From: Nitrososphaerales archaeon
Lineage (GTDB): Archaea > Thermoproteota > Nitrososphaeria > Nitrososphaerales > Gagatemarchaeaceae
Reading direction: 5' to 3'
Assembly (NCBI GenBank): GCA_035935095.1
Contig: DASYXJ010000075.1
Coordinates: forward strand, 1 to 64,000
Length of the DNA: 64,000 nucleotides
Shown here: positions 5,236 through 43,088 of the stretch, one piece after another
Layout of the letters: every line of letters begins with the position of its first letter
How positions within the stretch are numbered: position 1 is the stretch's first letter
Position numbers and translations under genes: made by a program
The notes under the pieces: model-generated
What the model saw: the letters and a program-made list of their open reading frames with translations, nothing else
What the model was told of the DNA's origin: nothing
Databases searched by the model: none

Positions 5236-6252
5236 CTACGGCTTCTGGAGCCCGATGCTGTTGATCAGTCCGCCTGAGTTCCCATCGACGACGAGGACAA
5301 TTTTGCCGTTCTGGTGGTCGTACCTCACGAACCAGACGGGCGCGTGAAGGAGCTCCGCCTCCCCCACGTCCGACTCGGTTGAAAGCTGTTGTACCATGTG
5401 ATGGGCCGCATGGGCCTTCACAGACTGGACCTGGTCCACAAAGGTCTTCGCCTGTGACTTCGCCGCATCCTCCCCAACATCCCCGTTGAGGACCTTCATC
5501 CCCTTCACCTTCGTCTCGTCGAAGATCACCCTCCCGTCCAGATTGAACTGGTAGTCCTTGGGCTGGTAATCGGTGAGCGCCTTGAGGCCTATGATGGGGA
5601 AGTTGTAGTTGTTGTCCATCTCGTAGGCCCTTCTGTTCCCCTGACCGCCCGCGAATCCTCCTCCGCCCATCATGGTCCCGAGGAGGACGCCCCCCATGAG
5701 TCCCCCGCCGCCGAAGCCGCCCCTCCCACCACCCATGGCTCCCCCCATGATGCCCGCTAGGGCGGCCGTCGTAGCAATCTGCCCGGCCTCAGCTGCCATG
5801 TCAACCGCAACGAGGGATGTCCTCGCCGAGACCGGGATCAACCAATACGGAACCATGGCTAGGTTCGCTTCTTCCAGCGTCGATGACTCCTGAAGGTGAC
5901 GGTGGAGGAGGCCTGTGTCCAGCATACCGTGTACCACCTTTAACACGTCATCCTGCTGAGTGAGCTTCAACGACAGCATCGTGTGCTTGTTTATGTTCTT
6001 CCACCCGTCGTTCCCCAGCGAAACACTGCTCCCGCAGTAGGCGCACGTGACCAACATCTCGCCGAAATTCGGAGATATCGGGGCCCCACAGTTGGGACAC
6101 TTGAGGGTGGTGGCGCCCGACGGAGCGAAAACCTGCTGAGTGCTCGACGGAGCTTGTTGCTGCCCCGATACGAGGCCTATCTTGGCTCCGCACTTCAAAC
6201 AAAATCCTGCGTCGTCAGGAAGCTGGGTGCCGCACTTCGGGCAGAACACCAA
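5236..6252 (-). CDS. zinc-ribbon protein with Gly/Met-rich linker and C-terminal conserved domain
   Basis: Two N-terminal ribbons (CPKCG..CLKCG; CPNCG..CAYCG), a GGFGGGG low-complexity linker, then a C-terminal globular region. Last gene of a three-gene minus-strand operon. Confidence 0.5.
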   Translation of the reverse strand: MVFCPKCGTQLPDDAGFCLKCGAKIGLVSGQQQAPSSTQQVFAPSGATTLKCPNCGAPISPNFGEMLVTCAYCGSSVSLGNDGWKNINKHTMLSLKLTQQDDVLKVVHGMLDTGLLHRHLQESSTLEEANLAMVPYWLIPVSARTSLVAVDMAAEAGQIATTAALAGIMGGAMGGGRGGFGGGGLMGGVLLGTMMGGGGFAGGQGNRRAYEMDNNYNFPIIGLKALTDYQPKDYQFNLDGRVIFDETKVKGMKVLNGDVGEDAAKSQAKTFVDQVQSVKAHAAHHMVQQLSTESDVGEAELLHAPVWFVRYDHQNGKIVLVVDGNSGGLINSIGLQKP

Positions 6253-6260
6253 TCAATCAC

Positions 6261-7349
6261 CTAGAGCTGCGTGCCACAGTTGTTGCAGAACTTCGCGCCC
6301 GCTGAAATAGGACTGCCGCAGTTGGGGCAGAACTTGCTTCCCCCTGCGGGTGTAGGGGGCCCAGTTGGTCCGGGCATCGTCGCGCCGCAGTTTGGACAGA
6401 ACTTCACAGAGGCAGCGACCAAGGACCCGCAGTTCGGACAGCTCCTTGTCGCGGCAGCTTGACCCATCCCTTGGGCCATTTGCCCTCCAATCGCATAACC
6501 TACACCCAATCCAGCTCCCAGTCCCGCCGTCACTCCAGCCCCTCCCGACGGGTTCTTCGCAGCGTCATCAATAGCTTTGCCAGTCTGGAATTGCATGTAG
6601 TTGACCCCAAGGACCTGCATCTCCGACCGGGTGTCGATGGCCTGTTGCACTTCGTCTGGGAGGCTGATTGTCAGTCCTGAAATCTTGTTGATTTCAATTC
6701 CGTACTGCCCCAAGTGGTCTGGACTGGTCGCTAACACTTCCTGTTCGATGTTGGTAAGATTGGCCGCCAGGTCTGTCACCTTTAGCCCCTGCGCCTTCAT
6801 CTTTCCCAGCGCGTTGTAGAGAAGAACGACTAACTGTTCCTTCAGTCTGCCTTCCACGTCGTCCGAGGTCTCAGCTCCGAAGGTACCCACGAATTGGTTG
6901 ATGAAGAGCTCGGGGGATGAAATCTTCCACCTGTACTCCCCGAACACCCTCAGGTTCACAATCCCGAAGGTAGGGTCAGTGAACGAGTAGGGCTCAGTGC
7001 TCCCGAACTTGCCGTCCAAGTACCTCTTGGGTATGTAGAATACTTCTGCCTCCTGCTGAACACCGGTGAAGAACTTCAGCAGCCCGCTCACGATGGGTGC
7101 GTTGATGTCAGTCAGCGCGTACCTGTTGGGCTGGTCGAAGTAGGTCAGCACCTTTCCATCCCTGTAGAAGACCGCAGTCTCGTCCTCTCTTACGACAATG
7201 TTGTCGTTCAGCCTGATGTTCCTGGGCACTCTCCAGAGTACGCTCCCTAGCTTGAACTGGTCGTCCCAGGCGATTGTCGTTGACCCCAGGAGACTCCCCC
7301 CTGAGGCCGGGACTGGGTCGGTTTTCTTTCCGAATACCATCTTTCTCAC
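6261..7349 (-). CDS. SPFH/band-7-like (COG4260 'virion core protein'-type) protein with three C-terminal zinc ribbons
   Basis: N-terminal ~280 aa resemble the Band_7_1/SPFH-like family. C-terminus carries CPNCG...CPNCG, CPNCG...CNNCG repeats. Confidence 0.55.
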   Translation of the reverse strand: MRKMVFGKKTDPVPASGGSLLGSTTIAWDDQFKLGSVLWRVPRNIRLNDNIVVREDETAVFYRDGKVLTYFDQPNRYALTDINAPIVSGLLKFFTGVQQEAEVFYIPKRYLDGKFGSTEPYSFTDPTFGIVNLRVFGEYRWKISSPELFINQFVGTFGAETSDDVEGRLKEQLVVLLYNALGKMKAQGLKVTDLAANLTNIEQEVLATSPDHLGQYGIEINKISGLTISLPDEVQQAIDTRSEMQVLGVNYMQFQTGKAIDDAAKNPSGGAGVTAGLGAGLGVGYAIGGQMAQGMGQAAATRSCPNCGSLVAASVKFCPNCGATMPGPTGPPTPAGGSKFCPNCGSPISAGAKFCNNCGTQL

Positions 7350-7888
7350 TGCCCGAGGGCTATGCCCTCTATTGCCTCTACCCTAAGCGACCACTTCTGC
7401 CTGATGTCTGCAACAGATTCTGCGAAGCCTCCCAATGCAGGCTGGATTGAATTCGGGGATGTGCTATCATAGCTAAGGCGCGAAGTTGCATCGTCCAGCT
7501 GGAATACTGTGCTGACGAAAGTGTAATCGTAATCGTAGAGCTTGTTGAGCTTGTCCTCGTTGACCTGTATTGGCGCCACCCAGCCCGCGTAACCTTGGGC
7601 CGCATGCCTTACCTCCCCGCTGAGCGCCTGAACCTGGGAGATCAGAGAGCCTATGCTTGTGAGGTTTGTCAGGTCTCCGGCTGTGGCCATCTGCTTCCTC
7701 ACCTGATCCAGGTTCCCTTTCACCTTGTCCAGCCTGTCCGCGACCTGGTTCCTTAGCAGCTCGTCCGAGACTCTGATGTCTTCCTTGCTTCTGTATCCTC
7801 TGAGGCCTGGAATGAGAAGCTGAAGTTTCTTCACTGCGCCTCTGTTGGCTTCTACCGTCTGCCTGATATCTGGGTTACCCTGAGACAA
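7346..7888 (-). CDS. hypothetical coiled-coil protein, first gene of SPFH/zinc-ribbon operon
   Basis: 4-nt overlap with the SPFH-like gene. Helical/coiled-coil N-terminus. Confidence 0.4.
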   Translation of the reverse strand: MSQGNPDIRQTVEANRGAVKKLQLLIPGLRGYRSKEDIRVSDELLRNQVADRLDKVKGNLDQVRKQMATAGDLTNLTSIGSLISQVQALSGEVRHAAQGYAGWVAPIQVNEDKLNKLYDYDYTFVSTVFQLDDATSRLSYDSTSPNSIQPALGGFAESVADIRQKWSLRVEAIEGIALGQ

Positions 7889-7917
7889 GAGCGTACAAAA
7901 GCCGATTCCTCCTCCAA

Positions 7918-7930
7918 CTAAATAAATATA
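7918..7930 (+). promoter_or_regulatory. TATA-like box upstream of integrase
   Basis: aaataaatata about 15-25 nt upstream of the GTG start at 7945. Confidence 0.3.
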
Positions 7931-7944
7931 ATCCGTTAGAAGCG

Positions 7945-9069
7945 GTGCATGAGGCGCCTGAGAAGGAGACCCAATTCCGGCGCTTCTATGAGAGAAAACC
8001 GCATTCTAGCCCTAAATGGGACGAATCCAGCAGGCTAGCAGGCATCATAGCCCAAGATAAGGCCATAACCGTCTATCTCACCAACCTAGCCAACAGACGA
8101 AGAAACAACGGGGAGGTATGCTACGGAACCAGGTGGAGAACAATCAACTCGGTACGCCACTTCCTACAATTCGTCCACAAGGACATCACTCCGACATCTC
8201 TGACAAAAATGATACAGGACACCAAGGAGCAGCACAAGAACGACGACTATGCCACGGACGACGCACTCCTTGCGTTTGTCTCAAGGCCATCCATCATAGC
8301 CAACGCACAGAGAGGAGCCTACGTCAAAGCCGTGTTCAAAGCGAACAGATGCCTCCTCCAGGCATCATTCAACACCTCATTCACGCATTCAACTAAGAAA
8401 ATCAGCCTAGGCATCCTGAAAGCGATCTACAACAATCTCGACGACGAACACAAGAACATAATCGACCTGCAAGCCTACGCAGGAGAAAGGGTGCAGGCTA
8501 TCTGCACTGTCCCAATTGACCAATGGGAAGACTTCGACAACAGATATACCATAATCCACATCCATGCTAGGCAGACGAAAGCGCGTAACGAACACATCTG
8601 TATCATCCCCCGGACTCTAGCAGACCAAATACGTAACATATGCAAGCTCACCAAGCGTGACCGACCATTCCCGAATTACGAAAGCCTCTGGCGCAAGATT
8701 ACCAGACTCGCCCTCGACAAATACGGGACTCGCCTGACAAGCCACTACCTACGAAAACGTTTCCACACCTTAGCCGGCAAGACAGCCATGCCCGTCAACT
8801 CGTGGGACTATCTTATGGGAGACAAGCAAACACACGGACACAACGCCGGGACATACACCCTTGAGGACTTTTCCGAACTCGTCCATGAGTACGACAAATA
8901 CCTAGCCCCTTACCTGTCAATCGAGGAACCAAAGGAACTGGATGACCCAAAGGACCCTTTCAAGACCACTGCGGAACTTGAACAACTACGTCAGGAGAAC
9001 AAGGAGCTTAGGGAGCATCTACTTAGCCTGACGAAGCTACTCAATGAACAGCTAACAGGGAGAGCTTAA
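7945..9069 (+). CDS. tyrosine-type site-specific recombinase/integrase
   Basis: C-terminal catalytic region with HxxR (LTSHYLRKRF) and downstream Tyr (GTYTL). Upstream Arg/Lys box (ARQTKARNEH). Coiled-coil tail. Confidence 0.75.
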   Translation: MHEAPEKETQFRRFYERKPHSSPKWDESSRLAGIIAQDKAITVYLTNLANRRRNNGEVCYGTRWRTINSVRHFLQFVHKDITPTSLTKMIQDTKEQHKNDDYATDDALLAFVSRPSIIANAQRGAYVKAVFKANRCLLQASFNTSFTHSTKKISLGILKAIYNNLDDEHKNIIDLQAYAGERVQAICTVPIDQWEDFDNRYTIIHIHARQTKARNEHICIIPRTLADQIRNICKLTKRDRPFPNYESLWRKITRLALDKYGTRLTSHYLRKRFHTLAGKTAMPVNSWDYLMGDKQTHGHNAGTYTLEDFSELVHEYDKYLAPYLSIEEPKELDDPKDPFKTTAELEQLRQENKELREHLLSLTKLLNEQLTGRA

Positions 9070-9081
9070 CAGGCTCCCCTG

Positions 9082-9094
9082 TTTTCTTTCTTTC
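9082..9094 (+). terminator. oligo-T tract after integrase
   Basis: ctcccctgttttctttctttc is archaeal-type T-rich termination sequence. Confidence 0.3.
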
Positions 9095-9136
9095 AATCGA
9101 TGACTAACTCGAAGGAGGAGAAGTGGCCAAGACAGT

Positions 9137-9367
9137 CTACGACCCACGGCACTTCAAACCCCATCTAAGCGAAAAAATACCAAGAACAAATAACAATACC
9201 GAAATCACTGGCAGATACCAATAGAGCAAAAACGGATGTTGAATTGACCAATTGTAGTAGGCATCCACTACAAAGAAGGATCCCACTAGGAAAAAGACGA
9301 TTGCAATCGAGATAGCTATTGCCGCGTTCGTACCTTGCCGCTTACCCATCCGCGCCATCGAAGACAC
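9137..9367 (-). CDS. small membrane protein (2 TM)
   Basis: Hydrophobic 76-aa ORF in the AT-rich island. Confidence 0.3.
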   Translation of the reverse strand: MSSMARMGKRQGTNAAIAISIAIVFFLVGSFFVVDAYYNWSIQHPFLLYWYLPVISVLLFVLGIFSLRWGLKCRGS

Positions 9368-9641
9368 GTTAACTCATGCACCGACTAAGTCCACCAGCGA
9401 AAGAGTCGGCCCCAAGGAGGCAATTTCCAACTTTCGCAGAGACCAATTGCCGAAACTATGAAGGAAAATCGGCATATAAGCCCTAATGAGCAATAACATC
9501 AAGCTACGCGGCGCCGCGCTTCGCTGCGGCGCTCGCGGAGGAGCCCTCTTGCAAATAAACGAGTGCTCCCCCAACCTCTTCCAGAAAAACCACACGGAAT
9601 GAAAATGAAGACTTAACACGAGCCTTTGACTCAGCTTCAAG

Positions 9642-10220
9642 GTGGACGACCCAACCATCGTCCTCCTCATCTTCTCGGGCCTTGCCGCAATCGGGGGCCT
9701 TGGCGTGCTCTTGACTTGGATCATCGCCTTCTGGAGGCGAGGCAAATTTGTCATTCAATTTGCTCACGGCGCTTCGTCAATTCAATGCCAACGGAGCACT
9801 GTTCGAACCTTTGACATCGAAGTCATATTCAGGGGACGAAGTGGTATCGAGACAAAGACTATCTTCTTCTATTTTCCACACCAACTCGGGCTCGCGAGTC
9901 CAGTGACAAAGAGTGTCCCACTCCTTACTGTCACACCTATTGCATCTGGACGTTTTGCCGACCATGACTATTTCGGTGTCGAGAATTTCTCCTTTCTCCC
10001 CGACGAAGCAATGAGAGTAACGTTTACACTAATCTTCCCGATACAGGTGGACAGTATGCAATCACATGTTCAGTTCACCCAGTTTCTGGAATCCCCAAAA
10101 TTCACACACTTAACGTCCAAGTCATCTGAACCCCCCAATACTTCTAACTCCTACTCGGGAACCACGGCGCATAGGACTCTCGGCGCTTGCCGTTCACTGT
10201 CTCCTGTGCAAGATCCATGA
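9642..10220 (+). CDS. hypothetical protein with N-terminal TM helix (island cargo)
   Basis: ORF in the AT-rich region. No domain recognised. Confidence 0.3.
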   Translation: MDDPTIVLLIFSGLAAIGGLGVLLTWIIAFWRRGKFVIQFAHGASSIQCQRSTVRTFDIEVIFRGRSGIETKTIFFYFPHQLGLASPVTKSVPLLTVTPIASGRFADHDYFGVENFSFLPDEAMRVTFTLIFPIQVDSMQSHVQFTQFLESPKFTHLTSKSSEPPNTSNSYSGTTAHRTLGACRSLSPVQDP

Positions 10221-10611
10221 GCCAAAGCCAAGCACCCTTATCGTCCGTGCCGCGCTCCACAAGACGAATCCTGGTCCCGTCCCTAACGGAGGTGATAACT
10301 AACGGCGCGCGGACAACACGAGCCCCGTTCATTGCTCAGTCCCCACATTGGCTGCAAGGCGACGCTTGAACTCCTCAAGGGTCACCCGCCGCCACCTCTT
10401 TGGCTTGCCCTCGAGCTCCCAGCAGCCGAAATGAAGAACCACTCGCCTTGATTTTGACCGCCAGACCGGAACGAACACGACAGCCTGTCCTTGGGAGAAC
10501 CCCTCCACGCACTCGAAACGAGCGCATCTAGGAGGACCATCAACCCATGCCATTCGGTCGAAAGTCGTTATGTGAAAATGCGGCTTAACAACAGTCGTCG
10601 GTGCTCCACGC

Positions 10612-11811
10612 TCAGGACAAAGGGCAGTCATTTTGGCCACCACTATCCCGAATACGAACCCACGGAGGGAGCAACGCGATGAACGGCTCATTCTCAGCAA
10701 CCAACTTCGCAGTATCCTCTGGAGGCACGCCACGCACAACGTGCATTTCGTGCCCATTAGGACAACAGACCTTCTTACGTTCAACATCATACTCGGTGCG
10801 TTTCGCGAGACGCAGTCCGAGAAACCGCATGAAAGGAGAATCGGGACTCTGACTCTTGGGACTCAAAGCCCCATAGTATCTTACCCGTTGCTTGCCCGCT
10901 CGAGCAGAAAGGGCCTCGCGAACCCAGTCGAGATCAACATCCCCCTCAACATTAACGTCAGCCCACTCAGAAAAGTCCTTGACCGGACTGCGGAACATAT
11001 ATGCTGTCCGATGATTCCATTCATCCCAACCTTCCTCATATCGAACATGAACGTTGACATCGTCCGCCTGAACTTCACCATACTCTGACTCCAAGACCTT
11101 CCTCCAAGAGGCACGAGCCTCAACAAACCGAGAAGGAAGACCTTTCACATCAACACCCGCGTCTTCCAGATGTCGCGTCGAAAAGTGAATAACACGAGCG
11201 GGCTTGACTATACAACCACCATCGACAACCTCAGGCTCGAATCCAAAAGCCAAGGTGATGCCGTGACAATGAACGTGTTTAGGGTCGAACTTACCATTCC
11301 CACTGGGCCTCTTAGAACCCCACCATTGGGGCACAACAATTGTCAACAACTGAACAGACTCAGGAATCTTCAACCTCCGTCGAAGGTAACTCTCGAACCA
11401 TTTCACAGACATGGCAGTAAAGCGATCAATCCCATCCCTCATTGAAACAAAACCACGAAACTCGTATGGAAGCGTAGTCTCCCACCGCCAAAAGCGGATG
11501 GTGGTATGCAAGGACGAGGTTATCTCGCGCATCCGATAACGGAGATAGTCCCAAAGGTGCCTCGTTTCAGCAGCGGAACAAAACGGACACCAACGGGAAC
11601 GACACAGCATACGCTTCCAAGCACCAAAGGATTCCTCACCGTCGCAAGCCCACCAAAAAGACTTGGCACCACACTGAGAAATGCGCTTGGCCTCGACATA
11701 ACCTACAACACGACGAACAATACCAAGCCAGGCCTCGGAAGACTTCTTACGGAACAGATCTTTCCCGTACACGAGTCTGTATTCCTGCCGGCGAACCCTG
11801 TACGGCGTCAT
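10612..11811 (-). CDS. putative HUH-superfamily rolling-circle replication initiator (Rep)-like protein
   Basis: HVHCHGITLAF (His-hydrophobic-His) motif followed by Tyr-containing segments (RTAYMF, RYYGALSP). Cys-rich N-terminal region. Location in the integrase island. Confidence 0.4.
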   Translation of the reverse strand: MTPYRVRRQEYRLVYGKDLFRKKSSEAWLGIVRRVVGYVEAKRISQCGAKSFWWACDGEESFGAWKRMLCRSRWCPFCSAAETRHLWDYLRYRMREITSSLHTTIRFWRWETTLPYEFRGFVSMRDGIDRFTAMSVKWFESYLRRRLKIPESVQLLTIVVPQWWGSKRPSGNGKFDPKHVHCHGITLAFGFEPEVVDGGCIVKPARVIHFSTRHLEDAGVDVKGLPSRFVEARASWRKVLESEYGEVQADDVNVHVRYEEGWDEWNHRTAYMFRSPVKDFSEWADVNVEGDVDLDWVREALSARAGKQRVRYYGALSPKSQSPDSPFMRFLGLRLAKRTEYDVERKKVCCPNGHEMHVVRGVPPEDTAKLVAENEPFIALLPPWVRIRDSGGQNDCPLS

Positions 11812-12035
11812 AGATTCAATCTCAACCCCCGCAGGAGCTTCAGGGCATAATCGAAACCGCAGTTAATGCAGCAGAAACGCGCCAGGTAAGATTCGAAAGC
11901 GCCTAGGTAGCGATAGCTTCCATCGTAGGAAAAGACCTGACCACACCCAAGGCACTCAAACACACCCATTTTCTCAGGCACTAGTAGGCTTCAAAGCAGA
12001 TATAATGGTCAGGCGAATATACTACTGGTATATTC

Positions 12036-12479
12036 ATGGTTCGAAGATGTTTTCATATTTTGGCCGTACAGATTCTGGAGTTATGCAATCAGAAACCGAT
12101 GTCCGTGGTCGATCTGTACTACGCCATGAAGATGAATTATCCGACCATATACCGGACCGTCAGGCCAATGCTCCTTCTAGAGTGGATCAGAGAAGCAAAG
12201 AAGGATGGATCAAGGGTCTTCAACGCAAAGTACTATCACGAGATGATAGGGAAAGACATCGGTAAGATGAGAGTTTTCTCCTTCAGAATTGATCCCAAAG
12301 ATTACTATTATGTGCCTACCGACCTCGGACAGGAAGTTCTCAAGACTTGGAAGCATTTGGTGGACATCCAGATGGAAATCCACACAGTCATGCTCCAAGA
12401 ATTCCTCTTGAAACTCCCAGTTGTGCATCCGGAACTGAAAAGAAAACATAAACCAAGAAAGTACGAGGATACCGAATGA
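12036..12479 (+). CDS. winged-helix transcriptional regulator
   Basis: wHTH-like N-terminal region (MSVVDLYYAMKMNYPTIYRTVRPMLLLEWI). Basic C-terminus. Confidence 0.45.
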   Translation: MVRRCFHILAVQILELCNQKPMSVVDLYYAMKMNYPTIYRTVRPMLLLEWIREAKKDGSRVFNAKYYHEMIGKDIGKMRVFSFRIDPKDYYYVPTDLGQEVLKTWKHLVDIQMEIHTVMLQEFLLKLPVVHPELKRKHKPRKYEDTE

Positions 12480-12496
12480 GCCCGAATGAAAGCTCG

Positions 12497-12862
12497 CTAC
12501 CTATTCTCGCCGCTGCGCCATACAGCACCTATGTTTACTCCTGCACTAAATGCAAACAAGAGACTTTCAAGAACTGCAATTGCAAATATGTCAACAACAT
12601 AAGAATCAGAAACAACAAACCCAACCGAAGAAGCAACTAACGCAAGCAATGATGTGATGATTGCTAGGATTCCTAGCACAACATTCCCGACGAAAAGCCA
12701 CAACATCAGCACCCGTCCGGGGAATCTGTGCCATCGAGTTACCTGATGCAGCCTAAACTCAAACAAGGAGATCTCTTTCATCGCATTAACGGTCAAGAGC
12801 CCGCCTACAGACATGAATAGCGCACTTGCCGTAATCACAGCCTGAAAGAATGCGTCTGACAT
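12497..12862 (-). CDS. small membrane protein (3-4 TM)
   Basis: Hydrophobic profile. Confidence 0.4.
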   Translation of the reverse strand: MSDAFFQAVITASALFMSVGGLLTVNAMKEISLFEFRLHQVTRWHRFPGRVLMLWLFVGNVVLGILAIITSLLALVASSVGFVVSDSYVVDIFAIAVLESLLFAFSAGVNIGAVWRSGENR

Positions 12863-13029
12863 TCATCACGGGGTCTATAGAGCCTCGATAAATGCAATGG
12901 CCAATGAACTACCGCAACTCCTGAGAACCAGCTCAACCATTGGAACCCGTAGTCCTTTGACCCCACTTTAGAAAGAGCCCAAGACAGCTTGTAACGCTTT
13001 AAAGATAGCCTTGCTTCATCTGCTTTAGC

Positions 13030-14268
13030 TTGCTTACCCGTATATCCATTCTAAACTTCAAGGGCATCAGCAGGATAACTTTACCTCTAGCCCCATTGAC
13101 GATTTTCATTGGGGAGAACGGCACCGGAAAATCAACCGTTCTTCAGACTCTAAGCATGCTCAAGCGTTCGGCAAACCAAATGCAAGTCTTCACAGACCTA
13201 CCCTACGCCAACCTCGGTCAACTTAGTAACCTAATTCCTCCAGCAAAAGTATCCGAGATAGAAATTTCTGGCTGGGAAATGATTTCTCTCCCAGCAATTC
13301 CGACAGATAAAGTGTCATTTACTCATAGGGTCGGTTTCGATGTCAATGGCCTGTTCTCAAACACAACCGAATTGAAAATCGGAGAACAGATTGTTCTGAA
13401 CGATTGGACCCGAGCGTTTCAAAGTATCGAGCCCCGTGACTGGAAAATAAGAAAAGCGCACTTCAATCTCTCTCCTCAACCCAACATTGGCGTAGCATTC
13501 AATTTGGGTGGCTATAGTTTCGAAGGTTCACCGACACCTGATGAAACAAAGAGCTCTCAGGAAACCTACAACGACCTCACAAAACTTGCGTCATTGATTT
13601 CATCCATTCTGCAAAGAATCTTCATCGTCTCTCCCCAAAGGGGACTGACCGATCCATTTTACGGGCTGCAGCCATCGCCGACAGAAGAATACTCGCCTCG
13701 TCAAGGAACACAAGTAATGGGTTCGAGCTTGGCGACTAACCTAGAGTACAATCGTTTGAACATTGCCCAGATTTCCGATTGGGAACGCGAGATTCTAGGA
13801 GTCGGCGTAAGCACCAAACTGCAGCCAGGGCCGGTCATTTACGTGAAAAACCCAGAACGAGGCACTGACTTCGTGAACGAGGGTTTTGGCTCCAACCAAC
13901 TTCTATTCGTTCTCGAACGCATAGCGAACACACCTGATTATTCCATTGTGGGAATCGAAGAGCCCGAAATACACCTCCATCCAAAAGCACAATTCAATTT
14001 CGGAAAATGGTTAGCAAAAACCCTTCCATTCCTTAGAAAGCAGGTGATAATCACGACGCACAGTTCTGACATTATTGCGGGAATTCTAGCTGGCGTTCAT
14101 CAAAAAACAATCAAACCCGAATATGTTTCATTGTTGTTCTTCGAACAAAAGGACAAGAAGATTGAGGCATCGATTTCAGAGATTGACCAGGACGGAAAGG
14201 TCACTGGGCCGGCTCTAAGATCCTTTGTTGAATCAGCCGCAGCCCAACTGTCAGAATACACACGATAA
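13030..14268 (+). CDS. ABC/SMC-head-like AAA ATPase (AAA_21/AAA_15-type, PtuA/OLD-like)
   Basis: N-terminal strand (ISILNFKGI), Walker A (GENGTGKST), D-loop/Walker B (IVGIEEPEIHLHP), H-loop (VIITTHSSDII). TTG start. Confidence 0.8.
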   Translation: MLTRISILNFKGISRITLPLAPLTIFIGENGTGKSTVLQTLSMLKRSANQMQVFTDLPYANLGQLSNLIPPAKVSEIEISGWEMISLPAIPTDKVSFTHRVGFDVNGLFSNTTELKIGEQIVLNDWTRAFQSIEPRDWKIRKAHFNLSPQPNIGVAFNLGGYSFEGSPTPDETKSSQETYNDLTKLASLISSILQRIFIVSPQRGLTDPFYGLQPSPTEEYSPRQGTQVMGSSLATNLEYNRLNIAQISDWEREILGVGVSTKLQPGPVIYVKNPERGTDFVNEGFGSNQLLFVLERIANTPDYSIVGIEEPEIHLHPKAQFNFGKWLAKTLPFLRKQVIITTHSSDIIAGILAGVHQKTIKPEYVSLLFFEQKDKKIEASISEIDQDGKVTGPALRSFVESAAAQLSEYTR

Positions 14269-14706
14269 GTGTCTTGGCCTTTGCCCTACATAGTAGACAA
14301 GAGCGTTATGGTTTCAGTTTGGAAAGAGTTCGACATGAACTCAGCCAAGTTTCTCATAAAGGTCCATGAAACCTGTGAAAGAGTCTTTGCAACCGACACG
14401 ATGCAGGCTCTATACAAGCGGCTGCTCAAAGAAGTTGAAGAAAGGCAGAGGTATGGTCCGACCTTATTGAACTCTCTTCAACTATACCTCCTTTGGAAGG
14501 AAACAAAGAAAGTCCAAATCATCTTGACATCGACGCTAACACCTGTCGATGGCGAAGAAGAAGTAGAAGACGAAGACAGAGAATTCATACGATTAGCAAA
14601 GGTAACTGGAGCAATCCTAGTCACATATGATAAGAAATTGCTCAAACTGGCGAGCATATTGGGCTATCAAGCAGCAAAGCCATCAGACTTGCTACAGAAG
14701 CCTTAA
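14269..14706 (+). CDS. PIN-like domain protein (putative nuclease)
   Basis: Abuts the ATPase stop by 1 nt. Acidic residues spaced as in PIN (YIVDKS..., ...EDREF..., ILVTYDKKL). Weak call. Confidence 0.4.
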   Translation: MSWPLPYIVDKSVMVSVWKEFDMNSAKFLIKVHETCERVFATDTMQALYKRLLKEVEERQRYGPTLLNSLQLYLLWKETKKVQIILTSTLTPVDGEEEVEDEDREFIRLAKVTGAILVTYDKKLLKLASILGYQAAKPSDLLQKP

Positions 14707-14741
14707 ACAACCAACTTGGCAGAAGCATGAAGTAGGAATCT

Positions 14742-15266
14742 TTGTTCTATGAAGAAGAACGAAGGACAAAGCCGACACAGGCACTGAAGATTCTAGTTTA
14801 CCGTCGAGACAAAGGAATCTGCCGTCTCTGCGGCGAAAAGGTAGACCCATTGGACTTCGATATCGGACATAACACCGCGTTTGCTAGGGGTGGCAAACTG
14901 AGCCTCAAAAACGCAATCCTACTCCACCCTAGATGTAACAGGTCAATGCAGAAGCTCAACCTAAAAGAAGCAAGGACAGTTCTTGGCATGCCAGAGACTC
15001 AGGAAGAACAAGCAAAGAAAATCCTAAGAAGCCTCGGCATGAATCAACTGAAATATCTCGCCAAGCAAAGCTTCATCAAACTCAAATCAAGAGTCGAGGA
15101 AGGATTCTTTAGCACCACAGTGATTCAACCGTCTAAAAGACAATATGTCAACGCTCTCGCTAAGGCTTTGAACGTCGAAGAGATCAAATCAAAAATCACT
15201 TCTATGCCGAAGCCTGAAAGAAAAAAGAAACCAGCTAAGAAGAAAAGTGGTTTCTGGGACTTCTGA
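14742..15266 (+). CDS. HNH endonuclease with Lys-rich C-terminal tail
   Basis: CRLCGEKVDPLDFDIGHNTAFARGGKLSLKNAILLHPRCNRSM is a classic HNH motif (Cys pairs, catalytic His, Asn). Confidence 0.8.
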   Translation: MFYEEERRTKPTQALKILVYRRDKGICRLCGEKVDPLDFDIGHNTAFARGGKLSLKNAILLHPRCNRSMQKLNLKEARTVLGMPETQEEQAKKILRSLGMNQLKYLAKQSFIKLKSRVEEGFFSTTVIQPSKRQYVNALAKALNVEEIKSKITSMPKPERKKKPAKKKSGFWDF

Positions 15267-15343
15267 CCGTTATGGAACCGTACAGGTCTTGCCTTGACCG
15301 ACTACCAGTAGAAGACAAACTTTGCTGTACTCTCACCTCCCTC

Positions 15344-16138
15344 TCATTGGGTCACATCCAACGCCCCGGTATACCAAGTCGCGACATTCCCGTCTGCTAG
15401 GACATAGATGACAAAAGTGTAATGGCCGGGTGCTGCATTTGAGGAATGTATGCTGAACGTATACGTCCCTGAAGTCCCCCCTGGTGCAAGGTCACTTACT
15501 ATCTGACTGGATGGAGATATTGACATTCCTGTCACAGCGGGTGTAAACAGAACTGACGCACTCAGGTGTGTGTAAAGGACATTTTGACCAGAACTCAGAC
15601 TGTGAACCTCAAAATGAATGGTCGTACTATCATTTCGACCAATGCTGCTCTTTCCAAGAGGATGGAACAGATCCGAATACCATCCAAAACCCGGCACCTG
15701 AACCTTCGGAAGGACATACCATGTGAATTGAGGGCCGACGACTGAGTGAGACCCGTTCACGTCGTGGTAGTTAATATTGGTGGATACAACATACACCCCA
15801 TTTTGAACATCCTTGAAAGAGACATCACTTGACACGTCAATAGATTGACCTTGAAGTATTGTGACAGATGGCATGTTCACTGCTCCAAAAGCAGGAGAGT
15901 TCAAATTCAGAACAACATTGTTGGCATCTCCTCCAGAATCTAAGATTCCAAAATCAAGATGGTTGACTTCTCCCGCGGTTGGATTCTGTATGGGTACTGA
16001 GACGGACAAGATGGCTGCCTTCTTGGCTGTCTGATACGAATGAAATGAAGTCAAGACAAAGGCTCCGCCAACAAGGATCATCACAGCCAATAGCACCACC
16101 GCCGTCCACGATCCATTCGCGTTCCGTCCAAACATCAA
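15344..16138 (-). CDS. N-terminally anchored extracellular beta-rich protein
   Basis: Signal-anchor helix (WTAVVLLAVMILVGGAFVL) then a Ser/Thr/Asn/Val-rich region. Confidence 0.45.
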   Translation of the reverse strand: MMFGRNANGSWTAVVLLAVMILVGGAFVLTSFHSYQTAKKAAILSVSVPIQNPTAGEVNHLDFGILDSGGDANNVVLNLNSPAFGAVNMPSVTILQGQSIDVSSDVSFKDVQNGVYVVSTNINYHDVNGSHSVVGPQFTWYVLPKVQVPGFGWYSDLFHPLGKSSIGRNDSTTIHFEVHSLSSGQNVLYTHLSASVLFTPAVTGMSISPSSQIVSDLAPGGTSGTYTFSIHSSNAAPGHYTFVIYVLADGNVATWYTGALDVTQ

Positions 16139-16215
16139 GTGGAGTACGGATGAGCCCAGTTCAAAGGAGTGTCGGCTTTAAAGGAGCTTCTAGGCGTCTT
16201 CTAAGCGCTTAGAAG

Positions 16216-16800
16216 ATGCCCCAAACATGGCTGAAGAAGGCAATAGGGATCTTCTGGGTTGCAGTTGTCCCTGTTTTACTGACCACTTGGGCATCTACGC
16301 ATCTGCTGGTGCCTTGGCAACCAAACGAATTACCTGTATTTCTGATTCTTACGGTTGTATCATTCCTTCATTTGGCTAACCAAGTGCAATATGACCCAGG
16401 GAGGATTAAACAAGTAAGTTTTCGCAATGTTCCGCCTGAAATAAAAGAATTAATTGTTGAGACAACAAATAGAGGCGAATACATCAACATCGAAATCCTC
16501 AACTGTCTCGATGGTCCCGAGAAGTTGTCCCAAAACGCCTTGAGCATTAAGGTGACGAATGAAAGGGGAATCAAACTGACGCCAACTCAAGCTCGGGAAT
16601 ACGTCCTCAAATTGGAGGGTGAAAGACTCATAGAGAGTCCGATTACCATGGGGAAACAACCGAAAGAGTACCAACTAACCCATAAGGGTAAATGGGTTCG
16701 GCTCGTTATTTCACAGGTTTTGCCCAAAACAAACTTCGAGTTCTATTGGAGAAACTACGTAGGTCTTAGGAATATTCCTCCACAACCACAAGAAACGTAG
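16216..16800 (+). CDS. membrane-anchored winged-helix protein
   Basis: Two N-terminal TM helices. C-terminal wHTH-like segment (LTPTQAREYVLKLEGERLIES). Confidence 0.4.
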   Translation: MPQTWLKKAIGIFWVAVVPVLLTTWASTHLLVPWQPNELPVFLILTVVSFLHLANQVQYDPGRIKQVSFRNVPPEIKELIVETTNRGEYINIEILNCLDGPEKLSQNALSIKVTNERGIKLTPTQAREYVLKLEGERLIESPITMGKQPKEYQLTHKGKWVRLVISQVLPKTNFEFYWRNYVGLRNIPPQPQET

Positions 16801-17116
16801 GAACTGGACGGGAATATGAGCGGTCACCAAATGCAAAATCGGTTAGATAGCGGACTCCAACGCATCAACTTCTCTTGTCAAAGAATCGACTGTCTCGAGC
16901 CGAGAAATCTCCATCGTCCAATTAAGTCAGTCTAAATGGCTATGAACAAACCTTCAGCATCACAAAAGCAATGGAATCCCGAAATGGAGGCAAACTATGC
17001 CCATGTCAGAAGAAGAGCAAAATGCTTTTCCTCTCCATGAGTGTATGAATAATGCACCATTAACGGATTATAAATATGGCGAAGGTTCCCTCTAGATTTG
17101 GAACAGGTCTCGAGTC

Positions 17117-17917
17117 TTGGACCTTGAAAAGCTCCGGATTGGATGCAGCGGCTGGTCCTACAAGGACTGGCAGGGCCTATTCTACCCGAAGGGACTGGCG
17201 CCTAAAGATTTCCTGGGCCACTATTCTAAAGTCTTCAACTCCGTCGAGATAGATTCCAGCTTCTACCGAATCCCGAACCAGTTCATGATAACCCAGTGGC
17301 GGAACAGCACCCCAGAAGGGTTCCTCTTCTCGCCGAAGCTCCCAAAGAAGATAACCCACGAAAAAAAGCTGAAGGATTCAGAATCAACGCTCGTCTTTTT
17401 CTACAGCGTAGTCAGCAAACTCAAGGAAAAGCTCGGACCCATTGCCATCCAGCTTCCCCCTTCTATCAAACTCAGCACACACCTCGAGCTGATCAAGGGC
17501 TTCATTTCGCAACTCAGCCCCGAGTTCAAGCACGCGATAGAATTCAGGCACAAGTCCTGGTTCGTTCCCGAGGTCTACTCTCTCCTTAGAAAGAACAACA
17601 TAGCGATGATCTGGTCGCTCAACCAGTATCTCGAGACTCCCCCGGAGGTAACCGCCGATTTCGTCTACCTCAGGATGGTCGGGGACAGGGAAATCACTGA
17701 GTTCAGCGGCATCCAGAGGGACCGTTCCGACGACATGAAGCGATGGGCCTCGTCGGTCAAGGAGAATTCGAGCAAGTTCGAATCCGGGTACGTCTTCTTC
17801 AACAACCACTTCGCCGGCTTCAGCCCCGAGTCTGCTAACGAGTTCCGCCGTCTCCTTGGGCTCATGGAGCTTGAATGGAAGGCGCAGGGGACGGAGCAAA
17901 GGACTCTCTTCGGGTAG
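17117..17917 (+). CDS. DUF72 family protein (YecE-like)
   Basis: IGCSGWSYKDWQGLFYP N-terminal signature of DUF72. Confidence 0.8.
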   Translation: MDLEKLRIGCSGWSYKDWQGLFYPKGLAPKDFLGHYSKVFNSVEIDSSFYRIPNQFMITQWRNSTPEGFLFSPKLPKKITHEKKLKDSESTLVFFYSVVSKLKEKLGPIAIQLPPSIKLSTHLELIKGFISQLSPEFKHAIEFRHKSWFVPEVYSLLRKNNIAMIWSLNQYLETPPEVTADFVYLRMVGDREITEFSGIQRDRSDDMKRWASSVKENSSKFESGYVFFNNHFAGFSPESANEFRRLLGLMELEWKAQGTEQRTLFG

Positions 17918-42651: not shown

Positions 42652-43088
42652 CTTCGTGGAAGCTTTGCAAGTCCCCGAGGGAGGGGTTTCCCCCTCCGCC
42701 GAGGATTCCGACGTGTGCCGGCCATAGTCCTCCTTCTGTTTTAGGCGGGATTCAGCTCAGCGGCCTACCCTGGTCTCCTGCAGGCGTTTCATCGACCACG
42801 TTTGGCCTTGCTCCGCACGGGTCAGCCGTTTCATCCCGGTCCCCACCGACCTCAAGGTCGCCCCATCATCGCATGATGGGCCGGGTCTCGTTTCTGTTCT
42901 GGAGCCGACCCTCTCGGGTCGCGTCTCTTGACGCCGTGCGTCCTGCTGCGAGGGAGGAACTTCCCCAGGAGATCCCCGTGGCCCGTCCACCGGCTCGCGT
43001 CGCACCCATGTGCCAGCGTTGACCAATTAACCGTTTCCTGATCCCGAAAGATAGAGTGCCTGACTAACCACTAGATCGACGGGAAGCT

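Follow-up and report, generated by a model that had tools for sequence, protein, structure and literature searches.

A conserved ATPase-PIN gene pair, a probable defence or toxin module, next to a separate HNH nuclease gene in a Nitrososphaerales archaeon

In several described immune systems, an ATP-binding cassette (ABC) ATPase is combined with a nuclease: in PARIS, AriA releases AriB, and in Septu, PtuA holds PtuB. To our knowledge, few systems of this kind have been studied in archaea. The subject of the present analysis is a cassette of three genes, which encode an ATPase, a PIN-domain protein and an HNH nuclease, at positions 13030 to 15266 of a 64,000-nucleotide stretch of DNA from a Nitrososphaerales archaeon (positions 1 to 64,000 of contig DASYXJ010000075.1 in assembly GCA_035935095.1, here called the window). 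In the reading that we favour, the first two genes are a conserved two-gene ATPase-PIN operon and probably an ATP-controlled RNase module with a role in defence or as a toxin, and the HNH gene is a separate neighbour.

The closest analogue of the pair is HEC-03, which consists of an ABC ATPase and a VapC-like PIN protein; its protection against phage depends on both genes, and its induction is toxic (Payne et al., bioRxiv 10.1101/2024.01.29.577857). In Menshen (NsnABC; Millman et al. 2022; Li et al. 2025, PMC12065111), the ATPase NsnB is peculiar in having a GxG signature and an Arg-for-Gln substitution in the Q-loop, and predicted complexes have its two DUF3696 helices gripping the PIN-like domain of NsnC. 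This domain acts as an adaptor between NsnB and the nuclease, and there are 15 families of NsnC effectors, with HNH not among them (PMC12065111). The Menshen survey was seeded on DUF262 and covered bacteria only, and the two-gene form with NsnB and PIN is not described there (PMC12065111). No description of the ATPase-PIN family was found in the literature.

The genes and elements of the cassette are as follows.

12998-13007, forward strand: candidate archaeal TATA box TTTAAAGATA, about 28 nt 5' of the ATPase start, read directly from the sequence
13030-14268, forward strand: ATPase gene, 412 amino acids, TTG start; its product is the putative sensor and regulator
13111-13137, forward strand: Walker A motif GENGTGKST, ATPase residues 28-36
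13945-13983, forward strand: Walker B and D-loop IVGIEEPEIHLHP, ATPase residues 306-318, with the acidic pair E310-E311
14110-14265, forward strand: DUF3696-like C-terminal helix and conserved tail, ATPase residues 361-412, where the PIN protein is proposed to dock
14269-14706, forward strand: PIN gene, 145 amino acids, GTG start, encoding a stand-alone PIN-domain protein
14697-14741, forward strand: HNH upstream element, which includes CTTAAA overlapping the PIN stop codon and may give the HNH gene a promoter of its own and a 5' untranslated region
14742-15266, forward strand: HNH gene, 174 amino acids, TTG start, encoding an HNH domain, a C-terminal half with SAP/HeH-like helices and a tail rich in Lys

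A previous interpretation of the same DNA, made from its letters alone (the sequence-only reading), had described three tightly packed, co-oriented genes. Their coordinates, their common strand and the gap of 35 nt between the PIN and HNH genes stand, while the gap between the ATPase and PIN genes is 0 nt and not 1 nt. Its assignments of an AAA_15/AAA_21 ATPase, a PIN-like middle protein and an intact HNH nuclease are all borne out by the profile matches and the predicted fold reported below.

The ATPase-PIN pair

Judged by its sequence, the first protein is an ABC ATPase of the OLD-ABC (AAA_15/AAA_21) type that resembles NsnB. Its Pfam matches are AAA_15 (E 6e-27) and AAA_21 (E 5e-19), and its best match by far among the PADLOC models is NsnB, the ATPase of Menshen (144 bits, E 2.8e-42), with residues 1-392 aligned to positions 1-325 of the 345 in the model. 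The PtuA, GajA, OLD and AriA models of the same collection align to it at the P-loop and D-loop ends only. NsnB is also the top PADLOC match of every one of eight relatives of the ATPase that were tested, with E values from 1e-35 to 1e-56. The homologs number more than 600 (662 at E<=1e-5); about 40 of them are full-length proteins at 32-55% identity, mostly unnamed and metagenomic, and the named ones in this group belong to the archaeal Conexivisphaerales and Metallosphaera. Many further homologs lie at about 30% identity, some of them named as Chloroflexi.

The catalytic site of the window ATPase is intact in its Walker A motif, its Walker B Glu and its H-loop His, and the family as a whole keeps Walker A, the EE pair of Walker B, the H-loop His, a GxG signature of the form EGFGSNQ and a C-terminal tail. 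In the family alignment (A4), the invariant positions are G28, N30, G33, K34 and S35 in Walker A, E310, E311, P312, E313, H315 and H317 in and just before EPEIHLHP (residues 311-318), and G389, L396 and F399 in the C-terminal part; the H-loop ITTHS occupies residues 341-345. R204 is likewise invariant in the family, and may be the counterpart of the Arg that replaces Gln in the Q-loop of NsnB, as far as its position in the sequence can tell. DUF3696 is matched at E<=0.01 by 9 of 24 family members, and the DUF3696-like helices would, by analogy with NsnB, dock the PIN protein. The solved structures contain no close relative of the ATPase, and those that match it (an OLD-family nuclease, the chain 9n69 named 'AAA family ATPase', and AriA) do so in the terminal motifs only. 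A search of a plasmid collection by tblastn matched neither the ATPase nor the PIN protein. A scan of genome contigs with the ATPase alignment was also tried and was set aside: the motifs used were too generic, and all that it yielded were bacterial ATPases that are distant and OLD-like (L010-L015; 520-715 amino acids), without useful context.

The product of the second gene is matched by no Pfam, PADLOC (E<=1) or PHROG model. Its predicted fold, at a predicted local distance difference test score of 91, is the PIN fold, i.e., a three-layer alpha/beta/alpha sandwich with a parallel sheet, and the structures nearest to the model are those of VapC toxins. The family is small: a word-indexed search finds 2 matches, and when 1.8 billion representatives are searched exhaustively with HMMER there are 23; 21 of the 23 are stand-alone proteins of 113-160 amino acids, one is a fragment of 75 amino acids and one is a marginal match of 630 amino acids. 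With the ED and LVT.D motifs aligned, the family profile has a further match (E 7e-4) in HARP, the RNA-free RNase P of PIN type, and some members of the family match Pfam PIN_5 (6e-6) or PIN_3. When 22 members were scanned with PADLOC (E<=1), no HEC-03 or NsnC model was matched, and the only matches were two weak ones, in which PIN family members align to the first 140 positions of PDC-M11A, an untested candidate of larger size. None of the viral contigs carries a member of the family, and a fold search in BFVD gave no significant match.

Three Asp residues, the main catalytic ones of a PIN domain, are kept throughout an alignment of 31 sequences: D10 in 26 of the 26 members in which the N-terminus is present, D103 in 31 of 31 and D121 in 30 of 30. 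T or S at position 42 is kept in 29 of the 31 sequences, and E44, the second canonical acidic residue, in 21. On these residues the family looks catalytically competent, with some doubt for the copy in the window. In the proposed module the PIN protein, as the conserved partner of the ATPase, would act as nuclease effector or as toxin.

When the two families are followed from one genome to another, a gene of the ATPase family lies directly 5' of a gene of the PIN family in the window and in all 10 other independent loci, archaeal and bacterial. The identity of their ATPases to that of the window is about 70% in L001 (a partial sequence), 53% in L003, 45% in L004, 40% in L022, 31% in L023 and 29% in L024; L016, L017 and L020 are metagenome contigs, and L025, a contig of 4 Mb, has a shorter ATPase of 348 amino acids. 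L023 is a contig of 639 kb on which the pair adjoins his genes. The junctions between the two genes range from an overlap of 4 nt to a spacing of about 24 nt. All fetchable loci with either protein were examined, and a tighter PIN alignment gave six metagenome loci. The count excludes L018 and L019, which are identical to L003, and L002, an independently assembled contig of 9458 bp (Logan SRR12347814_295943) that is 100% identical to positions 7827-17284 of the window. One further locus, L021, has a PIN fragment without an ATPase. In Metallosphaera javensis (L005, AP024487), the ATPase is intact and the PIN gene at 6237-6566 has decayed to a remnant of 45 codons, which the family profile recognizes at E 2.5e-7 and which is followed by an MNT/HEPN pair; this locus is an example of effector loss.

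The pairwise identities of the ATPases and of the PIN proteins co-vary (r = 0.85 over 36 pairs that are not independent). The PIN protein evolves much faster than the ATPase, as is expected under diversifying selection: between L016 and L020 the ATPases are 91% identical and the PIN proteins 64%. Among the neighbours, L004 has HARE-HTH and a restriction-modification gene of type IIG, L022 has Cas1, and L005 has, besides the MNT/HEPN pair, another AAA_15 ATPase and a helicase that is SLFN-like. Together with an integrase-like gene on the island in the window, these defence-type neighbours lend contextual support to a role in defence, and the cassette is, as the sequence-only reading had proposed, a plausible defence candidate.

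All three genes of the cassette, which their homologs and matches show to be real, have been given non-ATG starts. Such starts are supported by conserved sequence that extends 5' of the first ATG, as in the stretch YI[VI]DKSV, which is kept in L001; a TTG start is found in four of four HNH loci, and the genome seems to use TTG and GTG as start codons often. When the genes of L002 are called automatically, all three begin at internal ATG codons and give proteins of 370, 132 and 106 amino acids, from which Walker A, the first PIN strand with Asp10 and the whole HNH motif are lost. Since gene callers truncate all three genes in this way, and since the PADLOC-DB v2 models miss the PIN protein, as does a Pfam scan of the window copy, modules of this kind are likely to be overlooked in archaeal genomes. 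The candidate TATA box TTTAAAGATA would imply that the ATPase transcript is leaderless or has a short leader.

Relation to described systems and a proposed mechanism

The likeness to HEC-03 lies in the architecture, with two genes for an ABC ATPase and a VapC-like PIN protein. The PADLOC model HEC-03B (PDLC04148, 458 positions) matches the C-terminal third of the ATPase family with 68-126 bits, and the window ATPase with 68 bits. Unlike the NsnB model, which outscores it in every member tested, it covers only the part from Walker B to the C-terminus, and no HEC-03 model matches the PIN protein of the window or the 22 scanned members of its family, so that the PADLOC models do not place the pair in HEC-03 by sequence. 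HEC-03 was moreover found embedded in bacterial Hma systems, whereas the ATPase-PIN family is largely archaeal and lies outside Hma. The naming of the HEC-03 proteins appears to be swapped between the two sources, as HEC-03B of PADLOC matches ATPases, and in the preprint HEC-03A stands for the ATPase and HEC-03B for the PIN protein.

With Menshen, the pair has in common an NsnB-type ATPase that matches over its full length and lacks a coiled coil, a DUF3696-type C-terminal helix and the GxG signature in this ATPase, and a PIN-fold protein encoded directly downstream, just as NsnC begins with a PIN-like domain. It differs in that the PIN protein stands alone, without a C-terminal effector domain, in that this protein keeps the catalytic Asp residues which the 'inactive PIN' (inPIN) domains of NsnC are without, and in that Walker B has EE in the ATPase family and EN in Menshen. 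NsnA (ParB-DUF262 with ParBDB), or DUF262, was found neither in the window nor in the Pfam lists of L003, L004, L005, L022, L023, L024 and L025; the open reading frames upstream of the ATPase in the window encode a protein with a weak winged helix-turn-helix match and one of 121 amino acids without Pfam match, neither of them with DUF262. Canonical Menshen was rejected on the lack of NsnA and of an effector fused to PIN.

PARIS and Gabija/OLD combine an OLD-ABC ATPase with a nuclease that is set free or switched on when the system senses its signal, as is proposed here, but the effector of the present pair is PIN and not Toprim, and the AriA models score below NsnB. Among these systems, the ATPase-PIN module is a mostly archaeal variant of the known theme in which an ABC ATPase is combined with a nuclease effector.

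A mechanism can be proposed because of the analogy with PARIS, Septu, Menshen and HEC-03. The ATPase would oligomerise through its ATP-sandwich head and would hold the PIN protein by the conserved DUF3696-like helices at its C-terminus, so that the nuclease is kept inactive. A signal of infection or stress would change the nucleotide state of the ATPase, upon which the PIN protein would be released or activated and would cleave RNA, in the manner of the VapC toxins that act on tRNA or rRNA. Cleavage of RNA would then arrest the cell or the invading element, i.e., lead to abortive infection. The sequence comparisons and the predicted fold show the gene pair and its conservation, the PIN fold, the three conserved Asp residues, the kinship of the ATPase with NsnB and the independence of HNH; the binding of the two proteins, the RNA that is cut, the trigger and the part played in defence are inferred.

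A wider proposal, which we regard as possible but doubtful, is that the pair represents a widespread, uncatalogued family of archaea and bacteria which forms a minimal, and possibly ancestral, core of Menshen, with an ATPase of the NsnB type clamping a PIN effector that is still active. On the way to Menshen, PIN would have given up catalysis and turned into the inPIN adaptor to which toxin domains are fused, NsnA would have been added as a sensor of DNA, and the fast divergence of PIN would reflect an arms race at the interface of effector and trigger. If the favoured reading is true, an archaeal branch is added to the immune systems that combine an ABC ATPase with a nuclease (OLD, Gabija, PARIS, Septu, Menshen, HEC-03). 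The pair would also be a simple system of two proteins in which to ask how an ATPase of the NsnB type holds and releases a partner with the PIN fold, a question that matters for how Menshen works and for where its 'inactive PIN' adaptor came from.

The HNH neighbour and the rival explanations

The product of the third gene matches PF01844 (E 2e-5), and has the motif CxxC...H-N...N...[HC]xxCN and the HNH fold; its best structural match is McrA, a type IV enzyme. It has 23 close homologs, 54-78% identical and from Nitrososphaerota, in a family of about 173 amino acids with SAP-like helices after the HNH domain. In the sub-branch to which the window protein belongs, a His replaces the third zinc Cys (LLHPRCN as compared to LLCPxCN). 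The viral contigs contain only two distant relatives, 38-39% identical over the motif.

Three homologs of the HNH gene were examined in their surroundings, at positions 5001-5522 of L007, L008 and L009, and the ATPase and the window type of PIN are absent from all three loci. The gene follows a pair of DUF5343 and HEPN_Swt1 in L007, follows two unknown genes near an integrase in L008, and is convergent with an unrelated PIN gene in L009. Conversely, a hidden Markov model of the HNH family has no match in any of the 10 other ATPase-PIN loci. The 45 nt directly 5' of the HNH gene in the window are about 70% identical to their counterpart in L007, and the similarity begins exactly at the stop codon of the PIN gene; a motif containing TTA, about 40 nt 5' of the HNH gene, is common to all four HNH loci. 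This upstream element would, on its sequence, work as a promoter. From the varied contexts of the gene and the conservation of the element in front of it follows that the HNH gene behaves like a separate cassette with its own putative promoter, which abuts the end of the ATPase-PIN operon. Its neighbours, different in each of the four loci, are toxin-like or defence-like genes, and the HNH protein could be a nuclease that acts alone, either restriction-like or selfish, and whose gene marks variable hotspots.

These results bear directly on two explanations in which the HNH nuclease is a component of the system. The sequence-only reading had framed the cassette as a divergent Septu variant or else as an undescribed system with an ATPase and two nucleases. 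As a divergent Septu, it would have an accessory gene inserted between a PtuA-like ATPase and a PtuB-like HNH nuclease. Septu and the cassette do have in common the general theme of an ABC ATPase near an HNH nuclease, with the logic that the ATPase regulates the nuclease, and the ATPase has weak matches to PtuA models (E 1e-16 to 1e-13), which are confined to the P-loop and D-loop ends. These matches reach at most 59 bits, as compared to 144 bits over the full length for NsnB, and the NCBIfam PtuA model scores 50 bits against a cutoff of 500. The HNH protein of the window has no match to PtuB or TIGR02646, and its family has only four weak ones (E 0.001-0.009). Adjacency of the ATPase with HNH is unique to this island, being conserved in none of the 10 other independent loci. 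The Septu framing, for which PtuA, PtuB and a conserved ATPase-HNH operon were all looked for and none was found, has therefore been rejected, and an explanation by divergent Septu now seems highly implausible. The relation between the genes is also the reverse of that framing: PIN, which had been taken as the extra component, is the invariant partner of the ATPase, and HNH is what the other loci lack. Adjacency alone is thus misleading, as the HNH protein resembled an effector of the Septu type and yet is only a neighbour.

The system of three components fares little better, and we consider it improbable, though less so than Septu. In this explanation the ATPase controls both PIN and HNH, or an inactive PIN adaptor recruits the HNH nuclease in trans, as in a split NsnC. 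It would account for the common strand of the PIN and HNH genes and for the gap of only 35 nt, for the lack of E44 in the window PIN, and it has a precedent in Menshen, where the PIN-like domain bridges NsnB and the nuclease. HNH is however missing from all 10 of the other ATPase-PIN loci, including L001, where PIN is likewise without E44, and its own homologs lie in three unrelated contexts. The region upstream of HNH, with its promoter-like motif, is homologous to that in L007, and the three main catalytic Asp residues of PIN are invariant throughout the family, unlike those of the inPIN domains. HNH lies outside the 15 families of NsnC effectors, and the one match to an NsnC model among 23 HNH homologs (E 0.0028) is within chance. 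The sequence-only reading had named the lack of a conserved linkage between the middle gene and ATPase-HNH pairs as part of what would refute it; such linkage is found in 0 of 10 loci, and its alternative of one ATPase with two nucleases also lacks support.

A more serious rival leaves the ATPase-PIN pair as it is and makes it an addiction or stabilisation module of the integrated element, i.e., a toxin-antitoxin module in which PIN is a VapC-like toxin and the ATPase its antitoxin. The PIN model is nearest to VapC toxins, the pair shares its low-GC island with an integrase-like gene, Pfam describes AAA_21 as 'putative AbiEii toxin, Type IV TA system', and AriA is named 'antitoxin' in one PDB entry. 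In contrast to VapBC, which the PIN model otherwise recalls, the pair is without a VapB-type antitoxin, and the upstream partner is an ABC ATPase of 412 amino acids with an intact catalytic site instead of a small, labile DNA-binding protein. The pair is also found in chromosomal contexts that do not look mobile, and the analogous HEC-03 pair protects against phage. The roles in defence and in addiction are not mutually exclusive, and an addiction role as the explanation appears unlikely to us, but clearly less so than the other two.

Several observations nevertheless weigh against the favoured reading of the pair as a module for defence or toxicity that is separate from HNH. A plain addiction role would fit the same data. 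The census of linkage comprises 11 loci, as compared to more than 600 ATPase matches, and L023 and L025 lie among housekeeping genes and not in obvious defence islands. The DUF3696 match of the window ATPase (E 0.0017, 19 bits) is below the Pfam cutoff of 22 bits. E44 is replaced by T44 in the window PIN and by H44 in its closest relative, L001, with the adjacent D43 remaining, and the copy in the window could for this reason be weakened or inactive. The HNH gene, lying 35 nt downstream on the same strand, may also be co-transcribed with the pair by read-through.

The low-G+C island and its host

The cassette lies in a region of the window, from about 8000 to about 17600, where the G+C content is 0.43-0.52, as compared to 0.55-0.61 outside. 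Further features of the window are the following.

7945-9069, forward strand: tyrosine-recombinase-like gene near the left edge of the island, with an integrase match to phrog_216 (E 7.5e-5)
42713-42998, reverse strand: archaeal RNase P RNA (Rfam RF00373, 188 bits)

From the archaeal RNase P RNA follows that the host is archaeal. The sequence-only reading had spoken of an archaeal mobile-element island, of which the archaeal host and the low G+C content are well founded, while the support for an integrase is weak: the integrase-like gene has the phrog_216 match and no Pfam match, and the recombinase-like motifs HYLRKRFH (HxLRxxF) and GH...Y can be spotted in it by eye. Neither the window nor L001 has tRNA genes, and no direct repeats of at least 14 bp were found around the island.

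The ends of the contig L002 match the borders of the low-G+C island. About 20 nt inside each of the equivalent ends there is a copy of a direct repeat of 10 bp, GCTTCTACCG, at 7848-7857 and at 17259-17268, with the right copy inside a DUF72 gene (17117-17917). The repeat could mark att sites of the element or an insertion that varies in the population; a match of 10 nt is near the chance level, with about 0.2 expected.

Between the integrase-like gene and the cassette, the island encodes a Cys-rich protein of 399 amino acids without Pfam or PHROG match (10612-11811, reverse strand) and a small zinc-ribbon-like open reading frame (11808-11981, reverse strand), which may serve the element in its replication or maintenance. 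The gene that adjoins the island on the left encodes an SPFH/Band-7 protein whose C-terminal part is a double zinc ribbon (6261-7349, reverse strand; Pfam Band_7_1, 1.6e-34).

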